Shown: in pieces, positions 7,516-56,400 of the stretch
Layout of the letters: the number at the start of each line of letters is the position of its first letter
Numbering within the stretch: position 1 is the stretch's first letter
Assembly: GCA_944386775.1 (NCBI GenBank)
Contig: CALXCJ010000002.1
Span: 221 to 64,220 of the forward strand
Direction: 5' to 3'
DNA length: 64,000 bases
From: an uncultured Clostridia bacterium
GTDB lineage: Bacteria; Bacillota; Clostridia; TANB77; CAG-508
Made by a program: the position numbers and the translations under genes
The notes under the pieces: generated by a model
The model's database searches: none
The model's input: the letters and a program-made list of their open reading frames with translations, nothing else
Told to the model about the DNA's origin: nothing

Positions 7516-7555
7516 CATTGTTACTAAAAATGTTTAGTTTATGTTTATTTAAAAG

Positions 7556-7742
7556 TTAAATAAATTATTATCAAAAAATTTATTAAAATTTAAATAAATA
7601 TAATTATTGTTCAAAAATTAATTTAAAATTAAATAAATAATTATTTTCCAGAAGATAATTTGAAATTTGAATAAATAATTATTGCCTAGAACTTAATTTA
7701 AAATTTAAATAAATAATTATTGCCCAAAAATTAATTTAAAAA
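7556..7742. repeat. Five degenerate 34-39 bp tandem units derived from the gatD 3' end
   Basis: TT(A/G)AATAAATAA recurs at 7556, 7590, 7629, 7667 and 7705, matching the gene end TTGAATAAATAG at 7504-7515. Three units contain the palindrome AATAATTATT. Confidence 0.8.
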
Positions 7743-12353: not shown

Positions 12354-12422
12354 TTTTGGTTAATCTGGGACAGGTCCCTCGTGACCATTTTTGGTCAGTT
12401 TGGGACAGGTCTCTTGTGACCA
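12354..12422. repeat. GC-rich REP-like element, two tandem 34-35 bp units (type 1)
   Basis: The two units are TTTTGGTTAATCTGGGACAGGTCCCTCGTGACCA and TTTTTGGTCAGTTTGGGACAGGTCTCTTGTGACCA. They fill almost the entire 77-bp convergent spacer. Related copies occur at 41717-41776 and 43833-43876, with a fragment at 11577-11595. Confidence 0.8.
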
Positions 12423-12430
12423 TTTATTAG

Positions 12431-16221: not shown

Positions 16222-16415
16222 ATAATTAAGTATAAGACTTAATTATAAACATCAAATCCAGCATTTTCCCATTCTTCATAGGATTTAGCGCTCCAAAATT
16301 TCAAATTTTTTATTTCTTTTTTTAATTATTAACTTAATATTGACTTAAAACAAAATTAGTGGTATAAAATACTTAACAAATTTTTTCAAAATAATTAATT
16401 CTTATACTTAATTAC
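16222..16415. promoter_or_regulatory. Candidate invertible promoter (inverton 1), assembled in the OFF orientation relative to the LRR gene
   Basis: Site ATAATTAAG-TATAAGA-CTTAATTAT (16222-16246) matches the reverse complement of 16391-16415 at 23/25 positions, with the 7-bp core exactly inverted. The internal promoter TTGACT-17-TATAAA (16340-16368) fires rightwards, away from the gene. Confidence 0.65.
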
Positions 16416-30356: not shown

Positions 30357-31439
30357 CTATTCAGAAATTTTACAAACAAAATCCACCAAATCTTTTGCTG
30401 AATTTTTATTTATAAATTTAGACTGATTTTCTACCATCATATTTTGCATATCTTTATTTTCTAATAATTTAGCAGTATTTGCTATTACTTCTTCTATACT
30501 ATTTGATACTAAACTAAGACCATTTTTTTCGAAAAACTTCGCATTATAGTTTTCAACACCAGGTATTGGCATTATATGAATCATTGGTTTTCTTATAACT
30601 CCAACTTCTGTACTTGTAAGCCCTCCAGGTTTTGTTAAAACAATTGTACTTGCAGAAATATATTCATTTATATTATTTACATATCCTTTAACTATAAGTT
30701 TAGAGTTATCTATTTTTTTTAGTTCAGAATATAATTCTTTATTATTCCCACAAAGTGCTATGACATAAACATTTGGAATCTTTTCTAATATAGATTTTGT
30801 AATATCTTTCATTTTTCCAAATCCCATACTACCAGATGTAATTAATATAGTTTCTTTATCTGCCAGCATATAAATATCATTTTTTATTTTACTAAATGAA
30901 CTTGAAACAGATATTCCAAAAGCTTGTAAAATTTCTTCTTTAAAACCTTTTTTTATGAACTCATCTTTTAATGTAATATGTGGTATAACAAAATAATCTG
31001 GTTTTGTTTCTTCCCAAAATGGTATTGCATGATAATCTGTTGCAACATTAATAAGTTTTATATCTTTTCCTTCTTCTTTTAATGTAGTTACTGCCATTGC
31101 TGGAAATAAATGAGTACTAATAACTAAATCATAATCATTTTCTTTGATGTATGAGTATAGCTTGTCTTTTCCTAATTTGTTTAGAGTATATACAGGACTT
31201 GTAATTCCTGTTTTGCTATATGCTTCTCCTAATTTATATGCAAGTTTAAATATATTTCCATTTCCTTTTGTTGTTCCTAAATATATTTTTTCAGATCTTT
31301 TTTTGGCATTAGAACCTAAAATATCAAAATAGTCTGCAAAATCACAAGTAATATTATTTTCTTTAAATTCTTTTTCTATATAATGTCCACAAGCATTGTG
31401 GCCTCCTCCTGTGCTACAGGATAATACTAAAATTTTCAT
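30357..31439 (-). CDS. Diacylglycerol glycosyltransferase (MGDG-synthase/UgtP-like, GT28)
   Basis: N-terminus MKILVLSCSTGGGHNACGHYI and the C-terminal LTKPGGLTSTE motif are typical of the family. Confidence 0.7.
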   Translation of the reverse strand: MKILVLSCSTGGGHNACGHYIEKEFKENNITCDFADYFDILGSNAKKRSEKIYLGTTKGNGNIFKLAYKLGEAYSKTGITSPVYTLNKLGKDKLYSYIKENDYDLVISTHLFPAMAVTTLKEEGKDIKLINVATDYHAIPFWEETKPDYFVIPHITLKDEFIKKGFKEEILQAFGISVSSSFSKIKNDIYMLADKETILITSGSMGFGKMKDITKSILEKIPNVYVIALCGNNKELYSELKKIDNSKLIVKGYVNNINEYISASTIVLTKPGGLTSTEVGVIRKPMIHIMPIPGVENYNAKFFEKNGLSLVSNSIEEVIANTAKLLENKDMQNMMVENQSKFINKNSAKDLVDFVCKISE

Positions 31440-31550
31440 ATTTCACTTCCATTTATTATTAAATATATTTTACTTCTAATTACTGTTAAACTTATTTTGC
31501 TTTTAATTATTGTTAAACATATCTTATTATTAATTATTATTAAATATTTT

Positions 31551-32171
31551 TCACTTCCAATTATTATTAAACATATTTTTCAAATATTTACTATTAAATG
31601 TATTATCTAAAAACCTTTCATACCTACTACTTGGTGGGATTCCCATGTCGGCTTTGCGGGCTCTACCTACAGCAATTGTGGTTAATGCTATATCAAAAAT
31701 CAAAAATATAGATAAACAAATTGCAATAGTTTTAGATTTCTTTTCATCTAATTTATTAAGTTTTTCTTCTATTTTTGGGTATAAAATTTTTATCCATAAA
31801 ATTCCTAAAGCTCCCCAAAATAGAGAAAATAGGAAACAAATTCGACCATTAATATTTAAAAATCTATTAGAATAGTCCCATGCAGTAAAACCTAAAACTA
31901 ATTCCATCCCCCAGCTCATAATATATTCTAAAATTGAACCACCAACAAAACTTAGGCAAAATATTTTTAAATATGAATCATCTTTAAATTTGTATAATAA
32001 TACTGTAAGAATGACTGCACAAATACCATATGCAAAATTGAATGGTCCAATTACTACTGCTGAATGATTAATAACTACTCCTTTTGTTACAAGTGTCCAA
32101 ATTAATTCAATAAAATATCCACATATACTTGCTATTACAAAAATATAAAATAAATTGTAAAATTTTTTCAT
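31551..32171 (-). CDS. Polytopic membrane protein, DUF1113 / putative ABC-transporter type IV family
   Basis: 206 aa. The pattern FVIASICGYFIELIWTLV...IGPFNFAYG matches the family N-terminus. Confidence 0.5.
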   Translation of the reverse strand: MKKFYNLFYIFVIASICGYFIELIWTLVTKGVVINHSAVVIGPFNFAYGICAVILTVLLYKFKDDSYLKIFCLSFVGGSILEYIMSWGMELVLGFTAWDYSNRFLNINGRICFLFSLFWGALGILWIKILYPKIEEKLNKLDEKKSKTIAICLSIFLIFDIALTTIAVGRARKADMGIPPSSRYERFLDNTFNSKYLKNMFNNNWK

Positions 32172-36916: not shown

Positions 36917-37417
36917 TTATTTAAGTTTTATTAATGGTTTACCATATTCTACAACGTCTTCATTATTTACACATATTTCTACAACTTCACCATCATATTC
37001 TGATTCAATTTCATTCATTAATTTCATTGCTTCTACAATACATACTACTTGCCCTTTGTGTATTTTATCTCCTACTTTTACAAAAGGTGGTTTATTTGGT
37101 GCTGAACTTGCATAAAATGTTCCAACCATTGGTGATTTTATAATTTTTAGGTTTTCTTCTTTGTTTGCTTCTACCTTATTTTCGTTTGGTTCATTTTTTT
37201 CTACTTTTACTAAACTACTTTCTTGTTTTTCTTTTACTACAGGTACTGTCATAGGTGCAGATCCTTCAATAACATCTGCTTTACTTGCGATTATCACTTC
37301 TTTGTTTGTATTTTTTTTCATACTTATTTTTACGCCTTCTGGAAATTCTATTTCTAAAGAATCAAGTTTTGAGTTTCCCATATCATCCATTAACTTTTTT
37401 ATATCTTTGTAATCCAT
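36917..37417 (-). CDS. accB: Biotin carboxyl carrier protein
   Basis: Biotinyl-lysine motif EAMKLMNEI. 166 aa. Confidence 0.9.
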
Positions 37418-37585
37418 TGCTTTGCTCCTTTCAATACTTTGCTTTAGATAATTTGTTGTAAATAAGAAAAATATATAATTTTTTGATTACTACCATTTTT
37501 AATTCCTTATTTTTGTGTTTTTCACTTTTGCTTTCTTGTTTTTTATTTTTTATATTTTTCTTTTATAATAGTATAATATAAATTT

Positions 37586-38824
37586 TTATTTGTCAAATTT
37601 TTTTAATAGAATTGTTGCATTATGTCCTCCGAAACCTAAAGAATTTGACATTGCATATTTTACATCTACTTTTCTTCCTTCATTTGGTACTACATCTAGG
37701 TCACACTCTTCATCTGGTACTTTGTAGTTTATTGTTGCTGGTACAAAGCCTTCATCTATTGCTTTAGCACATACTATTGCTTCTACTCCTCCTGCTGCTC
37801 CAAGTAAGTGTCCTGTATGTCCTTTTGTAGAGCTTACCATTACTGTTTTTGATGCTTCACCTAACGCTGTTTTTATTGCTTGTGTCTCACAAGAGTCATT
37901 TAAGTGTGTAGATGTTCCATGGGCATTTATGTAAGTAATTTCTTCTGGTTTTGCTCCAGCATCTTGCATTGCAAGACTCATTGCTCTTGCTCCACCTTCT
38001 CCTCCTGGTGCTGGTGATGTTATGTGATATGCATCTGAAGTTGCTGCATACCCAACCATTTCAGCATATATTTTTGCTCCTCTTGCTTTAGCATGTTCTA
38101 GTTCTTCTAGAATTACAACTCCTGCTCCTTCTCCCATAACAAATCCGCTTCTTTCTTTGTCAAATGGGATACTTGCTCTTAATCTATCTTCTGATTTTGT
38201 TAATGCTTTTATATTTGTAAAACCTGCAATTCCAAGTGGTGTAATTGGTGCTTCTGTTCCTCCTGCAACAATTACATCTTGGTAGCCATGCCTTATCATT
38301 CTAAATGCTTCACCTATACAGTGAGTTCCTGAAGCACATGCTGTAACCATTGCTACAGATTCTCCCTTTGCTCCTAATTCTATTGCAACATTTCCTGTTG
38401 CCATATTTGAAATTCCCATTGGTATATACATTGGAGATACTCTATCTGGTCCTTTTGTAAAACATTTTTGGTTTTCTATTTCTATTGTTTCTATTCCGCC
38501 AATTCCAGATCCTATAATTATTCCTACTCTTTCCATATTTTCTTTTTCTTTGTCTAGCTTGCTATCTTCCCAAGCTTCTTTTGATGCAATTATTGCATAT
38601 TGTGAAAATTTGTCTAATCTTTTTGCTTCTCTTTTGTCAAAGTAGTCTTCTGGGTTGTATCCTTTTATTTCTGCTGCTATTTTTACTTTAAAATTTGATG
38701 CATCAAAAGCTTTTATATAGTCAATTCCACATTCTCCTGATTTTATTCCTTCCCAAAAGTCTTTTGCATTATTTCCTATAGGAGTTATTGCTCCAAGTCC
38801 TGTTATTACTACTCTTCTTTCCAT
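37586..38824 (-). CDS. fabF: 3-oxoacyl-ACP synthase II
   Basis: 412 aa with active-site context ACASGTH, HGTST and GHLLGAAG. Confidence 0.9.
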   Translation of the reverse strand: MERRVVITGLGAITPIGNNAKDFWEGIKSGECGIDYIKAFDASNFKVKIAAEIKGYNPEDYFDKREAKRLDKFSQYAIIASKEAWEDSKLDKEKENMERVGIIIGSGIGGIETIEIENQKCFTKGPDRVSPMYIPMGISNMATGNVAIELGAKGESVAMVTACASGTHCIGEAFRMIRHGYQDVIVAGGTEAPITPLGIAGFTNIKALTKSEDRLRASIPFDKERSGFVMGEGAGVVILEELEHAKARGAKIYAEMVGYAATSDAYHITSPAPGGEGGARAMSLAMQDAGAKPEEITYINAHGTSTHLNDSCETQAIKTALGEASKTVMVSSTKGHTGHLLGAAGGVEAIVCAKAIDEGFVPATINYKVPDEECDLDVVPNEGRKVDVKYAMSNSLGFGGHNATILLKKFDK

Positions 38825-38882
38825 TTAAATTCTTCCTTTCAATTAAGTTGTTTTAAATAAAATTTTATACATTTTTTATTTA

Positions 38883-39623
38883 CTACATTACCATACCGCC
38901 ATCTACATTGATTACTTGGCCTGTTATGTATGAGCTTTCTTCTGTTCCTAAGAAGTATATTAAATTTGCAACTTCTTTAGGGCTACCCATTCTTTTTAAT
39001 GGTATTTGATTATGAATATTTTCTTTTACTGCATCTGATAATACTTTTGTCATATCTGTTTCAATAAACCCTGGTGCTACAGCATTTACTCTTATGTTTC
39101 TTGAAGCTAACTCTTTTGCTATACTTTTTGTAAATCCTATTATACCTGCTTTTGATGCTGAATAATTTGCTTGACCTGCATTTCCTGCAACTCCAACAAC
39201 ACTTGATAGGTTTATTATACTTCCACTTCTTTTTTTCATCATATATTTTACAACTTGTTTTGTAACTATATATGTTCCTTTTAGGTTTATTTCTATTACT
39301 TTGTCAAATTCTTCTTCTGTCATTCTGATTAATAAGTTATCTCTTGTTATTCCTGCATTGTTAACTAATACATCTATTTTGCCGAATTTTTCTATTGCTT
39401 TTTCTACTACATTTTGTATTCCTTCTATGTCTGTTACATCTGCTTTTAATATTAGAGCTTCTACATTTTTTTCTTCAAATTCTTTTTGCAAGCTTTCTAC
39501 ATCTGTTTTGTCTGATACATAATTTATTACTACATTGTATCCATGGTCTGCGAATTTTAATGCTACCTCTTTTCCTATTCCTCTTGATCCTCCTGTTACA
39601 AATACTGTTTTTTGTTCTTCCAT
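38883..39623 (-). CDS. fabG: 3-oxoacyl-ACP reductase
   Basis: SDR motifs TGGSRGIG and YSASKAG. 246 aa. Confidence 0.9.
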   Translation of the reverse strand: MEEQKTVFVTGGSRGIGKEVALKFADHGYNVVINYVSDKTDVESLQKEFEEKNVEALILKADVTDIEGIQNVVEKAIEKFGKIDVLVNNAGITRDNLLIRMTEEEFDKVIEINLKGTYIVTKQVVKYMMKKRSGSIINLSSVVGVAGNAGQANYSASKAGIIGFTKSIAKELASRNIRVNAVAPGFIETDMTKVLSDAVKENIHNQIPLKRMGSPKEVANLIYFLGTEESSYITGQVINVDGGMVM

Positions 39624-39645
39624 AATCTCACTTTCCTTTCTTTTT

Positions 39646-40581
39646 TTAGTTTTTGTGTTCTGCTAAGAAATTTTCTAAACTTTCCAAACTGTTTATATTA
39701 TATGTTTTCGCTTCTTTGTTTTCTTTTTTTACAAAACCTGTTAGAGTTTTTCCTGGTCCTATTTCTACATATTCTTCTACTTGCTCTTCTTGCATTAGTT
39801 TTATTGTTTTGTCAAATCTTACAGGGCTTATTATGTGGTTTGCTAGAATTTCTTTTATATTGTCATTTTTGTCGTATATTTTTCCGTCTATATTTTTTAT
39901 TACTTTTACTTCTCCTATTTTGAATGTAACATTTTCTAGCTCTTTTTCATATGCTTTTTTTGCATCTATTAATTTTATTGTATGGAATGGTCCACTTGTT
40001 TTTAGTTTTATTACTTTTTTTGCTCCTGCTTCTTTTAACTTTTCAGTTGCTTCTTCTATTGCTTTTGCTTCTCCTGATATTGCTGTTTGGATACTGCAGT
40101 TGTAGTTTGCTGGTACTATAAATTTTCCTGTGTTTGAGATTTCAGTACATATTTTTTCTATTTTTTCTGGTTCAAGTCCTATTACTGCTGCCATTTCGTA
40201 TTCTTCTTTTGGAAGTAAATTTCCCATATAATATCCACGTTTTTTTATTAGGTTTATTCCTTCTTCAAAGTCTAACATTTTTGCATATATTAATGCACTA
40301 TATTCTCCTAAGCTTAGTCCTGCTGCATATTCTGCTGTTATATTGTTTTTTTCTAGTACTTTTAGTATTGCAAGACTTGTTACAAGTATTGCAAGTTGTG
40401 TATTTTGTGTTTTGTTTAGTTCTTCTTCTGGTCCTTCAAAACATATTTTCTTTATATCCATTCCTGATATTTTACTTGCCATTTCATATACTTCTTTTGC
40501 TTCATCATATTTTTCATATATGTCTTTTCCCATTCCTACGTTTTGTGCTCCTTGACCTGGAAATAAAAATGCTCTTTTCAT
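39646..40581 (-). CDS. fabD: Malonyl-CoA:ACP transacylase
   Basis: FPGQGAQ and GLSLGEYSAL active-site motifs. Confidence 0.9.
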   Translation of the reverse strand: MKRAFLFPGQGAQNVGMGKDIYEKYDEAKEVYEMASKISGMDIKKICFEGPEEELNKTQNTQLAILVTSLAILKVLEKNNITAEYAAGLSLGEYSALIYAKMLDFEEGINLIKKRGYYMGNLLPKEEYEMAAVIGLEPEKIEKICTEISNTGKFIVPANYNCSIQTAISGEAKAIEEATEKLKEAGAKKVIKLKTSGPFHTIKLIDAKKAYEKELENVTFKIGEVKVIKNIDGKIYDKNDNIKEILANHIISPVRFDKTIKLMQEEQVEEYVEIGPGKTLTGFVKKENKEAKTYNINSLESLENFLAEHKN

Positions 40582-40643
40582 TTTTTTGTTTACTCCTTTA
40601 CTATTTGTTTTATTTTTGGCTTATATTCTGTTTATATATTTAA

Positions 40644-41621
40644 TTACATTTGTAACAATATACTTCCTGTATTTAAACCTCCTCCATATCCAAGTAAGAT
40701 TATTTTATCACCTTTATTTATTTTATTTTCTTCTATTAGTTCATCTAGTGCTATTGGTATACTTGCACAAAATGTGTTGCCTACATTTTCTATGTTTATA
40801 TACATCTTTTGCTCTTGCACTTTTAATCTATTTGCTATTGATTTAATAATCTTTTTATTTGATTGGTGTGGCAGAATGTATTTTATATTTTCTATTTTTT
40901 CATTTGCATTTTGAAGTAATTCTTCTATGTTTTTTACTGTTTCTGTTACTGCATATTTATATATTTCTTTTCCATTCATATATATTTTATTTTCTTTTTC
41001 ACATTTTAGAATTTCGCAATTAGTTGAGTCAGATTTTATGTTTGATTTTATGTTTGATTGTATGTTTGCATTTAAATTATTTTGGTTGTTTTCACTATTT
41101 AATTCTTCACCTTCTATTAATGTTGCCCCTGCTCCATCTGATAATATTATAGATGTATTTATATCTGTTTCATCTGTATATGATGATAGTTTATCTACTC
41201 CTATAATTAATGCTTTTTTTACTTTGCCAGCTAATATATATGTACTTGCTATATCAAATGCTGCTATATATCCATTACATCCTGCAAGTATATCTATACA
41301 GTTTGCGTCTTTTATGCTAAATTCTTTTTGTATATAATTAGATATTCCTGGCATATATGTCATTGGAGTTGTTGTTGCAACTATTATTAAGTCTATATTT
41401 TCCATTAATTCTTTTGAATTTTGCTTTTTTTCAAATAAGTTTTTTGTTGAATTTATGGCTAAACTTTCTATTGTTTCTTCTTTGGCATAATATCTTTCTT
41501 TTATTCCTGTTCTTTTTTCTATGAAGTTTTCTTCTAGATTTAGCTTTTCTTCTAGTTCTTTATTTGTTACCTTGTTTTGTGGTAAGTATTTTCCGGTTGC
41601 TATTATTTTTATATTTTTCAT
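40644..41621 (-). CDS. fabH: 3-oxoacyl-ACP synthase III, with an Asn-rich low-complexity insert
   Basis: Active-site contexts LAGCNGY, HQSN and GNTFCASIP. An insert NSENNQNNLNANIQSNIKSNIKSDSTN is present. Confidence 0.85.
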   Translation of the reverse strand: MKNIKIIATGKYLPQNKVTNKELEEKLNLEENFIEKRTGIKERYYAKEETIESLAINSTKNLFEKKQNSKELMENIDLIIVATTTPMTYMPGISNYIQKEFSIKDANCIDILAGCNGYIAAFDIASTYILAGKVKKALIIGVDKLSSYTDETDINTSIILSDGAGATLIEGEELNSENNQNNLNANIQSNIKSNIKSDSTNCEILKCEKENKIYMNGKEIYKYAVTETVKNIEELLQNANEKIENIKYILPHQSNKKIIKSIANRLKVQEQKMYINIENVGNTFCASIPIALDELIEENKINKGDKIILLGYGGGLNTGSILLQM

Positions 41622-41716
41622 ATATTACCTCACATATTTTATTCTATATATTTATATACTATTTTTGGATTTTTTTCTATTAGAATGGGTGGTCAAGTTT
41701 GAATTTCTTTTTGTTA

Positions 41717-41776
41717 TTTTGGTTATTCTGGGACAGGTCCCTCGTGACCATTTTTGGTTAATTTGGGACAGGTCTT
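41717..41776. repeat. GC-rich REP-like element (type 1), one full unit plus one truncated unit
   Basis: TTTTGGTTATTCTGGGACAGGTCCCTCGTGACCA followed by TTTTTGGTTAATTTGGGACAGGTCTT. It is near-identical to 12354-12422. Confidence 0.8.
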
Positions 41777-41819
41777 TGAATGATTAATTTATGTGCCTTT
41801 TTATTTTTTGCTATTTTGG

Positions 41820-43442
41820 TTATTGGGTTTTTAGCCATTCTATAAATTCTTCATAACTATTTAAATTGTCTTCTACTCCTTTTATACTTTTTTCTATATA
41901 GTCTTGATTGTTTATTGCTTTTACATTTAGTGTATTTAAATAGTATAGGTTACTTAATTTATCAGTATTTGCTTCTTGTCTTCCTATTACTGCTCCTATG
42001 TTTGTTGTTCCTTCTACTTGTCCTTTGTTATAGCAGTTGGTTATGTCAAATGTTTCTGCATTTCTTCCTATTATTCCTCCGACTTGGTTTTCTCCGCTTA
42101 TTTTTCCTTTATTGTAGTTATTTTCTATTCTTCCTGATGTTCCTGTTTGTGATGTCCAACCTACTATTCCTCCGGATATTCCTTGTACTGTTTGTACTTC
42201 TCCTTCGTTGTAGCAGTTTGTTATATTTGCTTCACAGTCTGTTCCTATTGAACCTGCTATTCCTCCGACATTATTTGCATCTGTATCTGTTTTTGTGGAT
42301 GTTATGTTTCCTGTATTTGAACAGTTTGATATATTAGTATTTGGATACAATTGACCTACTATTCCTCCTACATTGTCACTTCCTGATACATTTCCAGTAT
42401 TAACACAATTAGTTACATTATAACCATTTATACCAGTATATGTTGTACCTATTATTCCGCCAACCAACATACCATTTTTTGATATGACTTCTCCTGAATT
42501 TGTACAATTTTCTACTGAAGCATCTGAAACACCAACTATTCCTCCAACATTTCCATTTTCACTTTTTACTATTGTGTTAACATTATTACAATTTTTTACT
42601 TCTCCTACATTAATTCCTACTATAGCACCAACTGCAGAAAATATATTTCCAGCAATAGTACACCCTTCTATATAGCTATTTTGAATTGTTAAATTTTGAA
42701 TAGTGTTACCACTCATACCAAATAATCCATATATTCCCGCTTCAGTTGTATTATTTATATATATTCCAAAAATAGTATTATTATTTCCTTCAAAAGTCCC
42801 AGAACAAGTCATTATAGTCTTCCACTCTGTACCTAAAGTTAATACCCCCTCTTCCTGCCTTGCTCCCATATCTAAATTATTTTCTAGATATACTGTTGTT
42901 TCTTCTGTTATTTCTTTTTCTTCTGTTATCCCTACACTTTGTTTTTCTGCATCGTCTACTTCCCCATTACAATACCTTGCAAAAAAATTCATTTGTGCTG
43001 TATTATATATATGCCAGTTAAATTCTTCATCTATTTCTGGGACCTCTGATGATATTCCATCCCATACATCTACTCTTCCTTCTAACACTGTTCCATCTTC
43101 ATATACTGTTACTACTACGTCATCTCTTTCTACATAGTACATATCTCCTACGCTTTCATTTTTTGTTACTGTTGCTCCTGCTACTTCGTTTAGGGCTTCT
43201 TCTGTTGTTTTTCCGTTTGATGTGTAATCGTCTATTAGTTTGTCTGATAATGCTATTTTTACTTCTTCTAATAGTGTGTTTTGGTTTGATTCTTCTTTGG
43301 CCTTTGTTGCGTTTTCTAGTATTCCATTTGGTCCGGTTAGTGTTGCTATTGCAACCCCTGCTAAAATTAGTAATACTATTACTGTTATTACTAGTGCGAT
43401 TAGTGTGATTCCTATCTCGTTTTGTAGTCTTTTGTTTTTCAT
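41820..43442 (-). CDS. GLUG-repeat surface protein with pilin-like N-terminal module
   Basis: N-terminus MKNKRLQNEIGITLIALVITVIVLLILAGVAIATLTGPNGIL, followed by about 10 repeats of the type NVGGIVG....I.NC.N.G.V. Confidence 0.8.
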   Translation of the reverse strand: MKNKRLQNEIGITLIALVITVIVLLILAGVAIATLTGPNGILENATKAKEESNQNTLLEEVKIALSDKLIDDYTSNGKTTEEALNEVAGATVTKNESVGDMYYVERDDVVVTVYEDGTVLEGRVDVWDGISSEVPEIDEEFNWHIYNTAQMNFFARYCNGEVDDAEKQSVGITEEKEITEETTVYLENNLDMGARQEEGVLTLGTEWKTIMTCSGTFEGNNNTIFGIYINNTTEAGIYGLFGMSGNTIQNLTIQNSYIEGCTIAGNIFSAVGAIVGINVGEVKNCNNVNTIVKSENGNVGGIVGVSDASVENCTNSGEVISKNGMLVGGIIGTTYTGINGYNVTNCVNTGNVSGSDNVGGIVGQLYPNTNISNCSNTGNITSTKTDTDANNVGGIAGSIGTDCEANITNCYNEGEVQTVQGISGGIVGWTSQTGTSGRIENNYNKGKISGENQVGGIIGRNAETFDITNCYNKGQVEGTTNIGAVIGRQEANTDKLSNLYYLNTLNVKAINNQDYIEKSIKGVEDNLNSYEEFIEWLKTQ

Positions 43443-43509
43443 TTTTTCTTTTCCTCCTATTTTTTTATTTTTCTTTTTTTGCTGTCTTTTATTTTGGATT
43501 TTATATTTT

Positions 43510-43703
43510 ATAATTAAGCAAAAAACTTAATTATATTTTCAAAAATCGTTAATTGCTTTATATTACTAGATTTTAGAGGTTTTTTGTGTCTTGGATTTTA
43601 CTACATTTTTATAAAAAACATTTTTCATTTATTGACAATTTTTGCGTTTAATGCTATATGTTTAATGTATTCATTAATTTAATTAATTTTTTTGCTTAAT
43701 TAC
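43510..43703. promoter_or_regulatory. Candidate invertible promoter (inverton 2), OFF relative to the GLUG gene
   Basis: ATAATTAAG-CAAAAAA-CTTAATTAT (43510-43534) matches the reverse complement of TTAATTAAT-TTTTTTG-CTTAATTAC (43679-43703) at 22/25 positions, with the core exactly inverted. Internal promoter TTGACA-17-TATATG (43632-43660) fires rightwards. Confidence 0.65.
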
Positions 43704-43767
43704 ATATATTACTTAGTTTATATTTCGGTGATTACAAATACTCTAATTATAAATATTTAACTTAAAT

Positions 43768-43813
43768 AAAAGCCCTTGGCTAAACACTTATAAATGTTTG
43801 CTTTGGGCTTTTT
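43768..43813. terminator. Imperfect bidirectional hairpin downstream of fabI
   Basis: AGCCC...AAACA pairs with TGTTT...GGGCT around an internal loop. T-runs follow on both strands. Confidence 0.45.
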
Positions 43814-43832
43814 ATTTATTATAGTCAATAAT

Positions 43833-43876
43833 GACCTGGTCACAGTTAACCATTTTTGGTTAATCGTGACCAGGTC
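43833..43876. repeat. REP-like long hairpin (type 1 variant)
   Basis: GACCTGGTCAC-AG-TTAACCA-TTTTT-TGGTTAA-TC-GTGACCAGGTC. It shares the 16-mer ACCATTTTTGGTTAAT with 41747-41762. Confidence 0.75.
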
Positions 43877-43906
43877 TTAATTAGCCATATATTAAATTTT
43901 ATTATA

Positions 43907-44677
43907 CTAAACTCCAACTATATTATACCCACTATCAACATGTATTATTTCCCCTGTTATAGCACTTGACATATCACTAAACAAGAATGCTGTACTATCT
44001 CCTACTTGATTTATAGTAACATTTCTATGTAATGGTGCTTTTTCTTCTACTACTGTTAAAATACTTCCAAAATCTTTTATACCTTTTGCTGATAATGTTT
44101 TTATTGGACCTGCTGAAATTCCATTTATACGGCAACCAATTTTTCCTAAATCAACAGCTAGATATCTTATACTTGCCTCTAAAGCTGCTTTTGCAACTCC
44201 CATTACATTATATCCTTCTATTGCTTTTTCTGAACCATAATATGTATATGCAACAATACTTGCACCTTCATTTAACATATCTTTTTCTTTTGCCATTCTA
44301 ACAATTGCAATTAATGAATAACTGCTAACATCTTGTGCATGTGCATATCCATCTCTTGATGTTAAAATGAAGTCATTTCTTAAATCTTCTGTATTTGCAT
44401 GTGCTATTGCATGTAATATTCCATCTATTTTTCCATGGTCTTTTTTAATTTCATCTAGGCAATTGCTTATATCTTCATCAATACTAACATTATTGCAAAC
44501 ATATACTGATGCACCTGGCAATTCTTTTACTAGTTCTTTTACTTTTTCTACACTATCTTGTGAACAAGTACATATAACTTCTGCACCTTGATTATATGCT
44601 GATTGTGCAGCTCCCCAAGCAATACTCCATTTGTTTCTTACTCCCATAATTACTACTTTTTTTCCTTGTAATATCAT
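43907..44677 (-). CDS. fabI: Enoyl-ACP reductase (NADH), FabI type
   Basis: GVRNKWSIAWGAAQ nucleotide-binding region and the Tyr/Lys triad region YNVMGVAKAALE. Start set at ATG 44677 after AAGGAGG. Confidence 0.8.
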   Translation of the reverse strand: MILQGKKVVIMGVRNKWSIAWGAAQSAYNQGAEVICTCSQDSVEKVKELVKELPGASVYVCNNVSIDEDISNCLDEIKKDHGKIDGILHAIAHANTEDLRNDFILTSRDGYAHAQDVSSYSLIAIVRMAKEKDMLNEGASIVAYTYYGSEKAIEGYNVMGVAKAALEASIRYLAVDLGKIGCRINGISAGPIKTLSAKGIKDFGSILTVVEEKAPLHRNVTINQVGDSTAFLFSDMSSAITGEIIHVDSGYNIVGV

Positions 44678-44703
44678 TTTAAAATTCCTCCTTATTATTT
44701 TGT

Positions 44704-44829
44704 CCCTTTTGGTAAATCGCCCAATTGGGAACATTTTTTTATTTTTTGTCCCATACGGGGACTATCCCTTTTGGGGATATTTTTCTATCCTTAGTGTTTT
44801 TGTGCGATTGAAAAACTGCCCATTTGGGG
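44704..44829. repeat. Five spaced CCC-N4-GGG(G) mini-dyads in the accA-fabI spacer
   Basis: CCCTTTTGG at 44704, CCCAATTGGG at 44720, CCCATACGGGG at 44750, CCCTTTTGGGG at 44766 and CCCATTTGGGG at 44819, within otherwise AT-rich DNA. Confidence 0.75.
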
Positions 44830-44840
44830 ACCTTTTTCAT

Positions 44841-45650
44841 TTATTGCCCTATTTTTCTATATTTTTCATACCTTTTTTCTAGCAGTTTTTGTTTATCCAT
44901 TTTTAATAGTTTTTTCAAATTCTTAATTAAATAATTTTTTATTTCTTCTGTAACTTCATCAAAGTTTTCTTCTATTCCTTCTGATGGTTCTTTTATTATT
45001 TCATCTATTATGTCTAATTTTTTTAAGTCCTTTGCGGTTATTTTCATATTCTCTGCCGCTTCTTTTGCTTTACTTGAATCTTTATATAAAATACTTGCAA
45101 AACCTTCAGGTGATAAAATTGAATATACTGCATTTTCAAGCATTACTATTTTATCTCCTACACCTATTCCTAATGCTCCTCCGCTTGAGCCTTCCCCTAT
45201 TACTATACAAATTATTGGAACTTTTAATGCTGACATTTCCATTAAGTTTCTTGCTATTGCCTCTCCTTGTCCTCTTTCTTCTGCTCCTATACCAGGGTAA
45301 GCTCCTGGTGTATCAATAAAAGTTATGATTGGCCTATTAAATTTTTCTGCTTGTTTCATTTGTCTTAATGCTTTTCTGTATCCTTCTGGGTTTGTCATAC
45401 CAAAATTTCTTTCTATGTTTTCTTTGGCAGTTTTTCCTTTTTGCTGTGCAACTATTGTTACTGGTATATCTTCAAGCATTGCGATTCCCGTAATTATAGA
45501 TTTATCATCGCCAAAACATCTATCTCCACTAAAGTCTATGAAATTTGTAAATATTTCATCTATGTAATCAGATGATTTTGGTCTTGATGCACTTCTTGCA
45601 AGTAATACTTTATCCCATGCTGATAATGTTTTTTTAGACATTTTATTCAT
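44841..45650 (-). CDS. accA: Acetyl-CoA carboxylase carboxyltransferase alpha subunit
   Basis: [10 protein letters not shown] and GEGGSGGAL-type motif ([10 protein letters not shown]). The start may be the second ATG at 45641, which has better-spaced AAGGA. Confidence 0.9.
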
Positions 45651-45745
45651 TCCTTATCTATGTATTTAGGTTTTGTGGTTTTACCTATAAACCATTGAAA
45701 TAATCAAACTTTAAAGATTTTGTTAAAGTTTTTAAACTTTTTTCT

Positions 45746-45807
45746 AAAGTCCGTCCCTAAAATCCCGGCTAGACGGGATTTTAAGGTCCGTCCCTTTATC
45801 CCGGTCT
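45746..45807. repeat. GC-rich direct repeat pair (type 2) in the accD-accA spacer
   Basis: AAAGTCCGTCCCTAAAATCCCGGCT and AAGGTCCGTCCCTTTATCCCGGTCT are separated by AGACGGGATTTT. This forms the hairpin AAAATCCCG/CGGGATTTT. A related copy is at 50752-50802. Confidence 0.75.
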
Positions 45808-46651
45808 ATCCTGTTATTTCTAGAATTTTTGATATTGTGCTTTTTAGGTCTTTTCTTTCTACTATTTTGTCTATGAAACCGTGTTCTAATAGGAATTCTG
45901 ATGATTGAAATCCTTCTGGCAATTTTTGTTTTATTGTTTGTTCTATTACTCTTGGTCCTGCAAATCCTATTAGTGCATCTGGTTCTGCAAGGATTATTTC
46001 TCCTAGGCTTGCAAAGCTTGCTGTTACTCCTCCTGTTGTTGGGTCTGTTAGTACTGATATGTATAATAAGCCTGCTTGGTTTAGCCTTTCTATTGCAGCT
46101 GATGTTTTTGCCATTTGCATTAGTGAGATTATTCCTTCTTGCATTCTGGCTCCTCCTGATACACAAAATAGTATAAGTGGTAGTTTTTCTTTTATTGCTG
46201 TTTCTACTGCTAGAGTTATTCTTTCTCCTACGGCTGACCCCATACTTCCCATTAGAAAGTTTCCATCCATAACTCCTAGAACGACTTTTTTTCCTTCTAT
46301 TTCACAGATGCCACATTTTACTGCTTCTTCTATTTTGGTTTTTTCTTTTAATATTTCTACTTTTTTTAGGTATCCTTCAAAGTTTAATGGGTCTTTTGTT
46401 AATATGTCTGCTCCTATTTCAACAAATGTTCCTTCATCTGCTATTTGCTTTATTCTTCTTCTTGATGATAATCTAAAGTGCTTGCCACAGTTTGGGCATA
46501 CACTTAAGTTTTTGTGAAGATCTTCTTTGTATATTATTTCTTTGCATCTGTCACATTTTACCCATTTGCCTATCATCATGTCTTGTGCTTCTACATTTTT
46601 TGTTCTTTTTTCTTCTTTATCATTTATTTTTTTTACTTTGTCTATTATCAA
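45806..46651 (-). CDS. accD: Acetyl-CoA carboxylase carboxyltransferase beta subunit
   Basis: Zn ribbon CDRCKEIIY...CPNCG followed by the carboxyltransferase domain. Confidence 0.9.
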
Positions 46652-46737
46652 TTTTTTTCTCTCCTTACTTTTATTTAATAAATGATCATTTTTAATATTT
46701 TATAGATATTATTCTTTTATATATTATGTATTATAAT

Positions 46738-46952
46738 TATTTTTATAAGTGTTCTTTTTTGTTTATACGATTAATTATACTTATTCTTATAAGTTCTCTT
46801 TTTGTTTAAAAGATTAATTACATTTATTCTTATAAGTTCTCTTTTTGTTTAAAAGATTAATTACATTTATTCTTATAAGTTCTCTTTTTATTTAAAAGAT
46901 TAATTATACTTATTCTTATAAGTTTTCTTTTTGTATAAAAGATGTATCATAA
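46738..46952. repeat. Five 43-bp tandem units ending in the accC 3' end
   Basis: TTATTCTTATAAGTTCTCTTTTTGTTTAAAAGATTAATTACAT-like units start at 46781, 46824, 46867 and 46910, preceded by a degenerate unit near 46738. The last unit encodes DTSFIQKENL plus the stop. Confidence 0.85.
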
Positions 46953-48256
46953 TTATTCTTTTTAAAGTTTTCATTGTTTAGTATTTTTAGAATAAAGTCT
47001 GTGTTTGTTTGTATTCCTTCTATTACTAGTTCTGCTACAGCACTTTTTAGTTTTGCTATTGACTCTTCTCTTGTTTTTCCGTGTACTATTATTTTAGCTA
47101 GCATTGAGTCATATGTTGGTGGTACTGTGTATCCTGCATAGATTGCTGTGTCTACTCTTATACCATTTCCTCCTGGTAAGTGCAATCCTGTTATTGTTCC
47201 TGGGCAAGGCATAAAGTTTTTGTCTGGGTTTTCTGCATTTATTCTTGCTTCCATACTGTGACCATCTATTTTTATGTCTTTTTGCATTAAGCTTAATTTT
47301 TCGTCACTTGCTATTTTTATTTGTTCTTTTATTATATCTATACCTGTTACCATTTCTGTTACTGGATGTTCTACTTGGACTCTTGTGTTCATTTCCATAA
47401 AGTAAAAGTCTTTGTTTTTATCTACTAAAAATTCTATTGTTCCGGCATTTGTATAACCTATTTCTTTTGCTGCTTTTACTGCAACTTCTCCCATTTGTTT
47501 TCTTGTTTTGTCATCTAAAATTTCACTTGGAGTTTCTTCTATAATTTTTTGGTTTCTTCTTTGCACTGAACAATCTCTTTCTCCTAGATATACACAATTT
47601 CCTTTTTCATCTGCTAGTATTTGTATTTCTACATGTCTTGGGTTTTCTACAAATTTTTCTAGGTAGATACTGTCATCATTAAATGATATTTTAGCTTCTT
47701 GTTTTACTAAATCATATGCTCTTTCTAATTCTTCTTTTGTGTAGGCGATTCTTATTCCTCTTCCTCCGCCTCCACTTGATGCTTTAAGTAGTACTGGGTA
47801 TTTTATGTTTTCGGCAATTGCTACTGCTTCTTCTTTTGATTTTATTAGTCCATCTGAACCTGGAACTACTGGTACTCCTGCTTTTTTCATTGTTTCTTTT
47901 GCCATTGATTTGTTTCCAAGTAGTTCGATTAATTTGTGATTTGGACCTATAAATTTTAGCCCCATTTCTTCACACATTTTTGCAAAACTTGGATTTTCTG
48001 ATAAAAATCCATAGCCTGGGTGTATACTATCTGCTCCTGTTAAGCATGCTGCTTCTAGTATTGCTTTTACATTTAAATAACTTTTATTAGATGGTGCAGG
48101 TCCTATACATATTGCTTCATCTGCAAGAGTTGTGTGCAAAGCATTTTTGTCTGCTTCTGAATATATTGCAACTGTTCTGATTCCCATTTCTCTGCAAGCT
48201 CTGATGATTCTTACTGCTATTTCACCTCTGTTTGCTATTAATACTTTTTTTAACAT
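46916..48256 (-). CDS. accC: Biotin carboxylase
   Basis: 446-aa ATP-grasp protein beginning MLKKVLIANRGEIAVRIIRACREMGI. Confidence 0.95.
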   Translation of the reverse strand: MLKKVLIANRGEIAVRIIRACREMGIRTVAIYSEADKNALHTTLADEAICIGPAPSNKSYLNVKAILEAACLTGADSIHPGYGFLSENPSFAKMCEEMGLKFIGPNHKLIELLGNKSMAKETMKKAGVPVVPGSDGLIKSKEEAVAIAENIKYPVLLKASSGGGGRGIRIAYTKEELERAYDLVKQEAKISFNDDSIYLEKFVENPRHVEIQILADEKGNCVYLGERDCSVQRRNQKIIEETPSEILDDKTRKQMGEVAVKAAKEIGYTNAGTIEFLVDKNKDFYFMEMNTRVQVEHPVTEMVTGIDIIKEQIKIASDEKLSLMQKDIKIDGHSMEARINAENPDKNFMPCPGTITGLHLPGGNGIRVDTAIYAGYTVPPTYDSMLAKIIVHGKTREESIAKLKSAVAELVIEGIQTNTDFILKILNNENFKKNNYDTSFIQKENL

Positions 48257-48602: not shown

Positions 48603-50300
48603 TCATTGCCAATATAGTATAGGGTATCTATTATTTATATTATTTGTGTCTTCTTTAAAACTATTTCCTAATGTTACATATAAACTTTGTAATTCTAAAC
48701 TTGTTTTAAAAGAACACTCATTTCCTATTATAGAATTGTTGACTCCGCATAAATCTGTTGTTACGTTTTCTAGAGAATATGAATTATAAATCTTTCCAAT
48801 ATATGTTGTATCTGTTTCTGCATAATAAAATTCATTATTATTTCCAACTAAACTTCCTTTTTTCTCTATTTCTCCATTAACATTTCCAACATTATAGCTA
48901 TTTTCTAATGTTCCTCTATTTAGTCCTATTAATCCTCCAACACATTCATATAAACCTGTTACTGCACCTGTATTATAGCAATTCATAATATTGGATTCAT
49001 TCATTCCAACTAATCCGCCAATATTAGAATTGCCATTTTCATTCTGACCTATCGCTTTTATGTCTCCTGCATTGTAACATTGACTTATTAAAGTATTTAC
49101 AGAATTATATCCACATATTCCACCTACATAGTATTGTGCCTCTACATCTCCAGTTGTATAACAATTATTTATAGCTGATTTTTCTCCTAAATATCCTGTT
49201 ATACCTCCTACCATATTTTCACCATTAACAATTCCTGTATTATAACAATTTACTGCATTTGAATTTAGGTTAACACTACCAACTACTCCTCCTACATGCA
49301 TAGTTCCTGTAACTTCTCCTATATTATAACATTCTTTTATATTAGAATCTTGAGCAACATATCCTGCCACTCCTCCTGTAAATTCACTTGTTCCATTTAT
49401 TCTACCTTCATTATGGCCATTTGTTATAATTGTATTAACATATGCACATCCTACAATTCCAGCACCATATGTTGAATTTATGTTTGCATTATTAGAGCAA
49501 TTGCTTATTACACTATTATTATAAGCATATCCAACAATTGCTGCTGTTGCACTTCCACCAGTTATGTTGCAATTTTCACCTATATTTAAATTAATAACTT
49601 TTCCACTATCTATGAGACCAAACAGCCCTTGTACTTTATTGGTTGTATTTATATAAATTCCATCTACATTATGATTTTTGCCATCAAATATCCCACTAAA
49701 AGGAATATTTGATTCATTATCAGGTGATGAATTTTCATTTAGATATAATCCTATAGGTACCCATAGTTCATTTATATCTAAAGTTATATCATTTACTAAA
49801 TATATATACCAGCCATTATAACTATTTCCTTCATTTACCTTATCTCTAAAATTCTTCAATTCATCTACTGTACTTATTTTTAACATATTTTCTTCTGATA
49901 TTACTTGTTTTTCATCTACATAATACATTCTTTTAGTATCATTCATATTTACTATAAAACTTCCATCACAATTATCTGTAACTGTGAAGTCTTTATTTTT
50001 TCCAAACTGATCTTTTATTGAATTTTCTAGACTTTCTTTTGTTATTTTAAATGTATCAAGATCCTCCATCTTGCTAGACGTTGCAGCCAGTTCAAGTCCT
50101 TCTTTTTCCTGTGTTTTTTCTGTTTTATTCTTACTTTCACTAGCTCTAGTTAAAATTCCATTTTCCCCAGTTAGTGTCGCTATTGCTACTCCTGCAAGGA
50201 TTAGTAAAACTACAATTGTAATTACCAACGCCACCAAAGTAATCCCTCTTTTACCTTTTGTTTTTTCTTTCGTTTCTCTCCCAATTCTTAATTTTTCCAT
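48603..50300 (-). CDS. GLUG-repeat surface protein with pilin-like N-terminal module (paralog)
   Basis: N-terminus MEKLRIGRETKEKTKGKRGITLVALVITIVVLLILAGVAIATLTGENGIL, then repeats of the type VGGI.G......I.NCYN.G.V. Start set at ATG 50300 directly after GGAGGAAAAA. The track ORF uses an upstream TTG. Confidence 0.8.
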   Translation of the reverse strand: MEKLRIGRETKEKTKGKRGITLVALVITIVVLLILAGVAIATLTGENGILTRASESKNKTEKTQEKEGLELAATSSKMEDLDTFKITKESLENSIKDQFGKNKDFTVTDNCDGSFIVNMNDTKRMYYVDEKQVISEENMLKISTVDELKNFRDKVNEGNSYNGWYIYLVNDITLDINELWVPIGLYLNENSSPDNESNIPFSGIFDGKNHNVDGIYINTTNKVQGLFGLIDSGKVINLNIGENCNITGGSATAAIVGYAYNNSVISNCSNNANINSTYGAGIVGCAYVNTIITNGHNEGRINGTSEFTGGVAGYVAQDSNIKECYNIGEVTGTMHVGGVVGSVNLNSNAVNCYNTGIVNGENMVGGITGYLGEKSAINNCYTTGDVEAQYYVGGICGYNSVNTLISQCYNAGDIKAIGQNENGNSNIGGLVGMNESNIMNCYNTGAVTGLYECVGGLIGLNRGTLENSYNVGNVNGEIEKKGSLVGNNNEFYYAETDTTYIGKIYNSYSLENVTTDLCGVNNSIIGNECSFKTSLELQSLYVTLGNSFKEDTNNINNRYPILYWQ

Positions 50301-50418
50301 TTTTTCCTCCAATATTATTTTTTATTAATTTCATTTAATAAAATATCATATTTTTTACTTCCTGTCCATTATTTTTTATCATATTGAATGATATTTTTGT
50401 TTGAATTATACTAATTTT

Positions 50419-50611
50419 ATAATTAAGCTAGAAAATTAATTAAAATTACAAATTTATACTTTGCTACTGAGTAAAGATTTTTCACTAGAATTATTAATAT
50501 TTTTTTAATTTTAAAATAATAATATCCATTCATAATATATTGACTTTTTTTATTTAAAATGCTATATATTTAATTAATATTAAAATATCATTAATTTTCT
50601 AGATTAATTAA
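50419..50611. promoter_or_regulatory. Candidate invertible promoter (inverton 3), OFF relative to the second GLUG gene
   Basis: ATAATTAAG-CTAGAAA-ATTAATTAA (50419-50443) matches the reverse complement of ATCATTAAT-TTTCTAG-ATTAATTAA (50587-50611) at 21/25 positions, with the core exactly inverted. Internal promoter TTGACT-17-TATATA (50540-50568) fires rightwards. Confidence 0.6.
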
Positions 50612-50890: not shown

Positions 50891-51289
50891 CTATAATTTT
50901 TCTATTTCACTTTTTGTTAACCCTGTTATTTCTTCTATTTCTTTTACTTGCATTCCTTTAGCTTTCATATTTTTTGCTATTTCTTTTTGTTTCTTTTCTT
51001 CTCCAATCTTTTGTCCTTCTTCTCTCGCTCTTTTCTCTTTTGTAAATTCTTGATATTCTCCCATTACTTTCCAATCGTTTATTCTTTGCATTACTTCATC
51101 TTGACTTATTTCTTCTAGCTTTTCTTTTGCTTTTTTTACTCCTTCATTTTCATCCATTATCTTTTTCACCTCTTCTGATTTTGGATTCTCTAAGAAATAT
51201 AACCACTCTAATAATTTGTCTTCTTTATTTCTTTTTTCCTTATATATCTTAGGTAATTCAATTCGTATATTCAGAATATTCCCCCTCAT
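50891..51289 (-). pseudogene. C-terminal remnant of an Rpn/YhgA-like PD-(D/E)XK recombination-promoting nuclease (putative transposase family)
   Basis: IRIELPKIY...LEWLYFLENP...IAKNMKAKGMQVKEIEEITGLTKSEIEKL matches the C-terminal half of the family. The roughly 170-aa N-terminal nuclease domain is absent. The ORF abuts the stop of the upstream gene. Confidence 0.55.
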
Positions 51290-56256: not shown

Positions 56257-56400
56257 TTTTATAAATTAACTTATAGTTATCTTATAAAGTATCTATACTA
56301 TTTTATGAATTAGCTTATAACTATCTTATAAAGTAACTTATACTATTTTATAAATTTGCTTATACTTATTTTACAAATATTTTTTATTAGTCACGACTTT
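56257..56400. repeat. Three 44-45 bp tandem units ending in the 3' end of the small pilin-like gene
   Basis: TTTTATAAATTAACTTATAGTTATCTTATAAAGTATCTATACTA-like units start at 56257, 56301 and 56346. Confidence 0.7.

Follow-up and report, generated by a model that had tools for sequence, protein, structure and literature searches.

We analysed a 64,000-nucleotide stretch of DNA (hereafter the window) that has a G+C content of about 27% and contains a spoIIIA operon and a fab/acc cluster, which indicates that its host is a low-G+C spore-forming Firmicute. Within the fatty-acid cluster, between fabI and fabH, lies a minus-strand gene whose 540-residue product matches the Pfam family Glug (E=4e-22). 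Its start is the only one adjoining a short cassette bounded by two inverted sites, which we refer to as locus 2 and which is one of three such cassettes in the window. The original prediction held that this cassette carries an invertible promoter that at present fires away from the gene. The features of locus 2 and of its two sister switches are as follows.

41820-43442, minus strand: putatively regulated gene of locus 2, 540 aa with four GLUG motifs, N-terminus MKNKRLQNEIGITLIALVITVIVLLILAGVAIATL (pilin-like hydrophobic segment)
43443-43509, minus strand: fixed leader from the proximal site to the ATG, 67 nt, with the Shine-Dalgarno sequence AGGAGG (complement of 43453-43458)
43510-43534: putative gene-proximal recombination site, made up of arm ATAATTAAG (43510-43518), core CAAAAAA (43519-43525) and arm CTTAATTAT (43526-43534)
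43535-43678: cassette interior, 144 bp
43526-43687: segment predicted to be exchanged on inversion, that is, everything between the two cores
43632-43660, plus strand: putative cassette promoter, with -35 TTGACA (43632-43637), a 17-nt spacer, TGC as extended -10 (43652-43654) and -10 TATATG (43655-43660)
43679-43703: putative gene-distal recombination site, made up of arm TTAATTAAT (43679-43687), core TTTTTTG (43688-43694) and arm CTTAATTAC (43695-43703)
43767-43816: segment separating the switch from fabI, composed of an A-tract, a G+C hairpin and a T-tract (AAAAGCCC...GGGCTTTTT), read directly
16222-16415: sister switch 1, cores TATAAGA / TCTTATA, 194 bp, OFF; putative plus-strand promoter TTGACT-17(TGG)-TATAAA, upstream of a minus-strand leucine-rich-repeat (LRR, internalin-like) gene (13921-16107)
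50419-50611: sister switch 3, cores CTAGAAA / TTTCTAG, 193 bp, OFF; putative plus-strand promoter TTGACT-17(TGC)-TATATA, upstream of the second GLUG gene (48603-50312, minus strand)
OFF junction of locus 2: TTTTATAATTAAGCAAAAAACTTAATTATATTTTC
Expected ON junctions of locus 2: GGATTTTATATTTTATAATTAAGCAAAAAAATTAATTAAATTAATGAA or CGATTTTTGAAAATATAATTAAGTTTTTTGCTTAATTACATATATTAC; the ON junction is also given as TTTTATAATTAAGCAAAAAAATTAATTAAATTAATGAA

Direct reading of positions 43300-43900 bore out the predicted coordinates and sequences of both sites. The proximal site has no mismatches to the site pattern and, as had been claimed, agrees with the reverse complement of the distal site at 22 of 25 positions, all but 1, 17 and 25; the 7-bp cores, CAAAAAA and TTTTTTG, are exact inverses. 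Each site is thus a pair of 9-bp palindromic arms around an asymmetric 7-bp core, and all six sites in the window have this 9-7-9 layout. The cassette is 194 bp long, equal to locus 1, and the A of the ATG (43442-43440, minus strand) lies 68 nt to the left of the first base of the proximal site, both as predicted. A repeat search found an inverted repeat at locus 2 with 27-nt arms that are 93% complementary and 138 nt apart. A 23-nt site pattern with up to three mismatches matched four times in the window, compared with 0.02 matches expected from shuffled sequences. A looser pattern matched six times against an expected 2.1, a count that is not significant by itself; these six matches form three properly spaced pairs with inverted cores.

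The predicted promoter was also there on reading: TTGACA-17-TATATG with TGC as an extended -10, ending 18 nt before the distal site and pointing rightwards on the plus strand, away from the GLUG gene. A generic promoter scan did not list it because TATATG lacks the usual final T. Promoter-like matches were not enriched over shuffles in this AT-rich DNA, so the call of this promoter rests on conservation and not on the scan. None of the -10 hexamers of the three window switches has the canonical final T (TATATG, TATAAA and TATATA), relatives having TATATT, and the promoter may therefore be weak or the window copies may be decaying. The original prediction had also considered that a fixed promoter might drive the GLUG gene; a scan of the minus strand across 43300-43950 returned no gene-facing promoter-like site in the OFF state. 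Two hairpins lie between fabI and the switch. The hairpin at 43767-43816, which is identical in three other assemblies of the locus (L039, L066 and L067), is likely to be a bidirectional terminator that would shield the switch from fabI read-through and halt the outward transcript of the OFF state. We found no RNA family of Rfam in the leader or anywhere else in the window.

The other switch-adjacent genes encode a 728-residue leucine-rich-repeat (internalin-like) protein and a 569-residue GLUG protein. All three products have a common N-terminus of basic residues followed by G/A-ITLIALVITIIVLLILAGV. This segment deviates from the prepilin motif (G-F/M-T-L-I/L-E), reading G-ITLIAL with Ala instead of Glu at +5, and the three proteins had no match to Pfam N_methyl; the term 'pilin-like' accordingly denotes resemblance only. 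A fourth small gene (56387-56866) encodes the same kind of N-terminus and has no switch; its N_methyl score is below threshold (17.3 bits against a cutoff of 21.2). Matches to GspG were only weak. Thousands of homologues of the GLUG protein that begin with the same N-terminus occur in metagenomes, and a search of the PDB found no sequence relative of this protein. Exact look-ups found no record for the GLUG protein, the second GLUG protein, the long FabI ORF or SpoIIIAH, and for FabH they found a match on a short contig only.

A family of putative related switches in uncultured Clostridia

With one genome taken for each species, we scanned for pairs of TAATTAAK-N7-MTTAATTA sites separated by 130-160 bp. 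The scan returned 25 loci, one of which was a chance archaeal match and the rest of which were in four uncultured Clostridia MAGs: a rabbit MAG (Lapin, 17 loci), E13__bin139, a Hadza MAG and ERR3414591_bin.48. From these MAGs, pattern scanning gave 26 further switches beyond the three in the window. Arm positions 2-8 were set by the search pattern, so their invariance is no evidence for the family, whereas core covariation, spacing and gene context were not imposed. Of the 29 distinct loci found in bacteria, 28 have a pair of exactly inverted cores, and 11 different cores occur; diversity of the core is not a universal rule, because about 14 of the Lapin loci have the same core, TACAATA. Most switches have a site-to-site spacing of 167-169 bp, and at nearly every locus the switch lies 32-230 nt upstream of a gene whose product starts ...GITLIALVITIIVLLILAGV. 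The sites of the relatives are of the 9-7-9 and 9-6-9 layouts.

The interior of the cassettes is conserved in one respect. In all 29 cassettes, from five genomes, the -35/TGn/-10 block lies at a fixed offset of about 97-98 nt into the interior. When the cassettes are oriented by this promoter, they have a -35 of TTGAC or TTGCA, a 17-nt spacer with TGn at its end and a -10 that is mostly TATATT and ends about 17-18 nt before the site. The promoter scan itself called the equivalents at two loci with TG before the -10, one in the ON orientation (L026) and one in the OFF orientation (L062). The three window copies have a mean column identity of 70%, in DNA that is AT-rich, and only their sites and promoter are conserved. 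The putative cassette promoter would face the GLUG gene in one orientation only.

Searches for the site-pair pattern in JGI metagenomes and IMG/VR, which served as a negative control, found only TAATTAA low-complexity repeats, none with the gene family. The control matches (in JGI metagenomes, viral contigs and one archaeon) were of low complexity, and most of them had non-inverted cores. Not every gene of the family is under switch control: P0106, a more remote homologue, lacks a switch at its locus, and its upstream region is invariant in six assemblies.

Orientation of the cassettes

In the relatives, we compared the direction of the promoter with that of the adjoining gene. The promoter points away from the gene in 22 of the 24 callable loci and toward it in two (L005 and L026). 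Once flipped, the L005 cassette matches that of its paralogue L004:2203 at 96% identity, compared with 59% for the unflipped sequence; over the next 250 nt downstream, the two agree at 92% in direct orientation. Similarly, L026 is in the ON and its paralogue L022:2709 in the OFF orientation, and their downstream sequences are 92% identical. The promoter-side inner arm of the distal site at locus 2 ends in T rather than G, as it does at the other non-Lapin loci, and at L026 the promoter-side inner arm moves together with the promoter.

Evidence for both orientations also comes from single loci. One such locus (P0025), from a related species, has the gene order accA-fabI-switch-GLUG and is syntenic with locus 2 of the window; its protein is identical in four samples, and its sites are of a related 9-6-9 type, TTCCTTAAG-TATAAA-CTTAAAGAC. 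Three of its contigs (L062-L064) are OFF, with the promoter away from the gene, and the fourth (L065) is inverted, with the promoter toward the gene. L065 starts inside the cassette, where 49 of 49 nt match the distal interior of L062 once that is reverse-complemented, and the join lies exactly at the core. The junction between L062 and L065 falls between an inner arm that differs and the core, which places the exchange within the overlap region for the 9-6-9 type only. The second such locus (P0020) has sites of a third type, TTCTTAGAG-TATTAAA-ATCTAAGAA, and is represented by nine contigs from nine samples, all of which stop just upstream of the switch. In a hairpin contig of this locus (L056), the gene leader and the 5' end of the gene stand on both sides of the cassette, with 73-nt flanks that are exact reverse complements, as expected if reads of both orientations are present. 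The evidence for inversion at one and the same locus thus comes from related switches with other arms (the CCTTAAG and TTCTTAGAG types).

At locus 2 itself, all five assemblies (the window, L001, L039, L066 and L067), which are consensus assemblies and not reads, are OFF. Over 448-487 nt, the sequences of L066 and L067 do not differ from the window. L039 has the same promoter half of the cassette as the window together with a different gene-proximal half, leader and gene (of 780 aa), and this mosaic indicates that locus 2 also varies by allele replacement. Samples that contain the window strain include ERZ28616110, ERZ24773372, ERZ16268120 and ERZ28617330.

Proposed mechanism and alternatives

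Three independent lines of evidence (the site anatomy with the covariation of the cores, the conserved position of the promoter with the association with one gene family, and the occurrence of both orientations in homologous loci) support the reading of locus 2 as an invertible promoter cassette that now fires away from its gene, in line with the original prediction. We consider it likely that locus 2 is a site-specific-recombination switch (inverton) that turns the surface-protein gene on and off. In the mechanism that we propose, a recombinase encoded elsewhere would bind as dimers to the two 25-bp sites, each consisting of an asymmetric 7-bp overlap flanked by 9-bp arms (consensus TAATTAAG), and strand exchange within the identical inverted cores would flip the approximately 170 bp between them. 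In the OFF state, which is the orientation in the window, the promoter would point away from the GLUG gene and toward the hairpins behind fabI, and none would face the gene. In the ON state, the promoter would face the gene and read through the proximal site and the 67-nt AGGAGG leader, so that the 5' UTR would be about 100 nt long and the GLUG protein would be produced; when we modelled this state, the -10 ended 110 nt before the ATG. Private cores would keep the three window loci from recombining with one another, and a single enzyme could serve all of them.

Which enzyme would carry out this reaction is suggested by the sites. The core sites of tyrosine recombinases (lambda Int, Cre, Flp, Xer and FimB/E) consist of inverted arms and an asymmetric spacer that is identical between partners, whereas serine invertase sites (hix and gix) are even-length with a 2-bp crossover dinucleotide, and only this dinucleotide must match. 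The switch sites resemble the former: two inverted arms flank an asymmetric overlap within the 6-8-bp range, and in 28 of the 29 loci, with 11 cores among them, the two partners have identical overlaps. They depart from the latter, as the site is 25 bp long and covariation extends across the whole of its asymmetric 7-bp centre. Because the site is of odd length and the 6-7-bp asymmetric spacer must match that of the partner throughout, a trans-acting tyrosine recombinase is most likely the enzyme that flips the switch. We found no recombinase gene in the 64-kb window or in the sequence around the 29 switches apart from one mobile-element enzyme at L016; no ORF of at least 150 aa in the window resembles a recombinase, and phmmer and motif scans of 436 ORF segments from around the switches and from the window found no other. 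The L016 enzyme, an Xer-like tyrosine recombinase 340 bp from the switch, was considered as the invertase and rejected as an accessory enzyme of an IS91-type element, which is inserted into a switch-controlled family gene. Its homologues lie on many short contigs, followed by an IS91/Y2 transposase, and there are no switch sites at those loci.

One alternative is that a serine invertase of the Hin/Gin/Mpi type flips the switch. The sequence searched yielded no candidate invertase, and the best-known multi-locus trans-acting promoter invertase, Mpi of Bacteroides fragilis, is a serine recombinase (PMC5903667). Nevertheless, both the 25-bp length of the sites with their 6-7-bp asymmetric spacer and the covariation of the whole spacer between partners, which is a tyrosine recombinase requirement, argue against this class, which we consider unlikely. 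A different possibility is that locus 2 is a relic, a true member of the family whose copy is locked OFF or no longer drives expression. That five of five assemblies are OFF and that the -10 lacks the conserved final T, as in the other two window switches, would fit such a relic. However, both of its sites are intact with cores that are still perfect inverses, and the promoter retains a perfect -35 TTGACA and the TG of an extended -10. Moreover, a mostly OFF consensus, as at 22 of the 24 callable loci of relatives, is what would be expected if each locus were ON in a minority of cells, and the minority orientation of C. difficile switches ranges from 0.5 to 16%, with values of 0.5-5% for several of them (PMC5903667). 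We therefore regard a locked copy as quite improbable; we infer that the promoter is active and that locus 2 continues to flip.

The remaining explanations assign the cassette another role. If the switch worked like that of cwpV, a fixed upstream promoter would read through the cassette, one orientation would form a terminator and the internal promoter would be incidental. The length of 194 bp is close to the 195 bp of the cwpV switch (PMC2784873), and the cassettes of the Lapin and Hadza MAGs and of the P0025 type have a hairpin and T-run at the non-promoter end, along with an A-tract in the two MAGs, with the hairpin and T-run reading toward the gene when OFF. At locus 2, however, the cassette has no clear internal terminator, and between fabI and the distal site there is a strong hairpin with a T-tract instead of a gene-facing promoter-like site. 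Together with the -35/TGn/-10 block, which is the most conserved feature of the interior and keeps its offset across species and three arm types, this makes read-through control very unlikely. It could also be argued that the cassettes are MITE-like mobile inverted-repeat elements with an outward promoter that have spread through the genome, as they are about 190 bp long, have terminal inverted repeats and occur in many copies (at least 17 in one MAG). Yet nearly all copies lie in the 5' leaders of a single gene family, on a fixed side and at a fixed distance, those in the window are alike in little beyond their sites and promoter, and no target-site duplication is visible at locus 2. In addition, each end is palindromic about a core, the two cores of any one element co-vary, one locus occurs in both orientations with its junction at the core, and comparison of the cassette with plasmid and phage records revealed no similarity, all of which make a mobile element highly improbable. 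Equally hard to sustain is the idea that the sites are an operator pair for a dimeric transcription factor, perhaps looping the intervening 169 bp, with no rearrangement of the DNA. Each site is indeed a 9-N7-9 palindrome, and the centres are about 16 helical turns apart, but a factor that reads the arms needs neither inverse spacers nor covariation across 11 core types, and flipped cassettes are observed.

If the inverton reading is correct, the different cores may have a further function. It is possible, although we offer this only tentatively, that they form a natural heterospecific-spacer address code (CAAAAAA, TATAAGA and CTAGAAA), in which one trans-acting recombinase, belonging to no characterised invertase family, would flip each promoter independently while inter-locus deletions and megabase inversions are forbidden. 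Given that one relative has 17 or more switches in its genome, such a code would amount to a combinatorial generator of surface coats that spans the genome and relies on a single enzyme, in a lineage of uncultured gut Clostridia. The switches provide the Clostridia, in which few promoter invertons have been characterised, with an inverton family that is cleanly defined by sequence. They tie it to the GLUG/LRR surface proteins with a shared pilin-like N-terminus, a family that is very large, unannotated and common in gut metagenomes. The implication is that these uncultured gut bacteria would vary their surface coat cell by cell, which bears on immune and phage evasion. Because contigs break at the switches, the interpretation of strain-level metagenomics is also affected. 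Finally, the compact 25-bp sites with interchangeable cores, together with their recombinase, could provide orthogonal recombination tools.

Comparison with known systems

In its functional features, locus 2 matches a known kind of switch, the promoter inverton, but we did not find its site family described, and our literature search found no paper that ties GLUG proteins or the TAATTAAG site motif to inversion. Among surveyed invertons, hCom2 inverton group 139 comprises intergenic Clostridia invertons with repeats of about 25 bp that are linked to tyrosine recombinases; its invertase is nearly always within 5 kb (PMC11892184), whereas none is found near the switches described here. Invertons are reported to be few in Clostridia genomes, with a median of three (PMC11892184), and the supplementary text searched contains neither the TAATTAAG motif nor GLUG.

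Unlike Mycoplasma penetrans, which represents another phylum-level lineage, uses another protein family and has cassettes of about 135 bp with 12-bp repeats, the host of locus 2 has a cassette of 194 bp with 25-bp composite 9-7-9 sites. The likeness lies in the overall arrangement: the mpl (P35-family) lipoprotein genes of M. penetrans form a large family of surface-protein genes, whether scattered or clustered along the genome, in which each gene has its own short invertible promoter cassette and can be switched ON and OFF independently (PMC10502178, citing Horino et al. 2003), as is proposed here. Similarly, the Mpi invertons of Bacteroides fragilis are many genome-wide promoter invertons that control surface architecture, with the recombinase encoded elsewhere (PMC5903667). 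By contrast, Mpi is a serine recombinase and its targets are polysaccharide operons, whereas the site anatomy described here points to a tyrosine type and the targets are protein genes with a pilin-like N-terminus.

Closer in taxonomy are the RecV switches of C. difficile (cwpV/Cdi1, flgB/Cdi4 and cmrRST/Cdi6), which likewise occur in Clostridia, are about 150-200 bp long and have a surface-protein target (PMC2784873, PMC5903667). RecV is a tyrosine recombinase that acts in trans on several C. difficile loci, where the minority orientation is often a few percent (PMC5903667). Unlike locus 2, the cwpV switch has no internal promoter and works through terminator formation (PMC2784873), and the repeats of C. 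difficile are mostly unrelated between loci (PMC5903667). The switches described here, by contrast, have arms that are common to all loci.

The fimS element of E. coli, which FimB and FimE invert, is similar in that a promoter within an invertible element is flipped by tyrosine recombinases to turn a surface adhesin or organelle on and off; it is 314 bp long with 9-bp repeats, and its recombinases are encoded adjacent to it. Switches related to fimS are found in UPEC (PMC6083910). Locus 2 differs from fimS in having no adjacent recombinase and sites that are multi-copy. A parallel to the use of different cores is Cre/loxP, in which inverted arms flank an asymmetric spacer, partners must match and lox sites with different spacers do not recombine. 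The loxP site is phage-borne with a 13-8-13 layout, whereas the sites described here are chromosomal with a 9-7-9 layout (9-6-9 in one relative), and the likeness is thus one of working principle only.

Surroundings of switch 2

Switch 2 (43510-43703) and the GLUG gene it controls lie inside an acc/fab fatty-acid cluster (window 36917-48256), with fabI on one side of the insertion and fabH on the other. The accA-fabI-switch-GLUG order recurs in a related species (L062 1-3795). In one strain carrying the same locus (L039), FabI is identical, the GLUG allele is different (780 aa) and the gene-proximal half of the switch 2 cassette has diverged. Two hairpins separate the switch from the stop codon of fabI (43907), and both are identical to those of the window in L039 and in two further assemblies of the locus (L066 and L067).

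43820-43889: hairpin 1, a palindrome with 33-nt arms, TATAGTCAATAATGACCTGGTCAC...GTGACCAGGTC...
43767-43816: hairpin 2, terminator-like, with an A-tract, a G+C stem and a T-tract

Elsewhere in the window, two tandem copies of a relatively G+C-rich 35-nt unit, TTTTGGTCAATCTGGGACAGGTCCCTCGTGACCAT, adjoin a DUF4143 ATPase gene (12354-12425). Because its GGTC/GACC-rich palindromic content is reminiscent of the palindrome behind fabI, this unit may be a REP-like element.

Tandem repeats and genes without a switch

The intergenic regions of the window hold unusually many tandem repeats, with units of 23-59 nt. The accC-accD interval carries 5.3 copies of a 43-nt unit (89%), and the region upstream of the HNH gene carries 5.2 copies of a 38-nt unit that was also detected as nested inverted repeats. 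A search of window positions 1-64000 against Rfam returned zero families at the gathering score, with no tRNA, riboswitch or T-box in the 64 kb.

46730-46960, 20473-20636, 7547-7741, 57752-57863: tandem-repeat intergenic regions
31437-31604, 56257-56378, 19034-19275: further regions of this kind
50891-51289 (-): 132-aa ORF just upstream of switch 3, inspected by eye
56387-56866 (-): fourth gene with the GVTLIALAITIIVLLILA N-terminus, 159 aa

The 132-aa ORF, which is probably a gene fragment, looks by eye like the C-terminal region of 'transposase-like' proteins of the Rpn/PD-(D/E)XK type. No switch was found upstream of the fourth family gene, whose product has a weak, sub-threshold Pfam N_methyl match and a weak GspG match. 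A switch is likewise absent from the locus of P0106, a GLUG homologue (39% identical) encoded downstream of gmk/rpoZ; its hairpin-bearing upstream region does not vary among six assemblies (L047-L052), which come from different samples.

Promoters and cores of the switches

The final T that is usual in -10 hexamers is absent from all three window switches (TATATG, TATAAA and TATATA); nearly all relatives have TATATT at the equivalent position.

43655-43660: -10 hexamer, switch 2
16344-16349 region: -10 hexamer, switch 1
50565-50570 region: -10 hexamer, switch 3

In a relative represented by a rabbit MAG (CANRPI01), about 14 switches share identical arms and the core TACAATA (listed for L004, L005, L007, L010, L011, L014, L015, L017, L020, L023 and L024), and recombination between loci would therefore be permitted in principle. 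Several of these switches lie 100-400 bp or less from contig or locus ends. At another switch locus (L016 1482-2500), the controlled family gene is broken directly past its N-terminal segment by an IS91-type element. This element, which is multi-copy across many gut metagenomes, encodes an Xer-like tyrosine recombinase followed by a Y2/IS91 transposase, the latter seen in homologous contigs.
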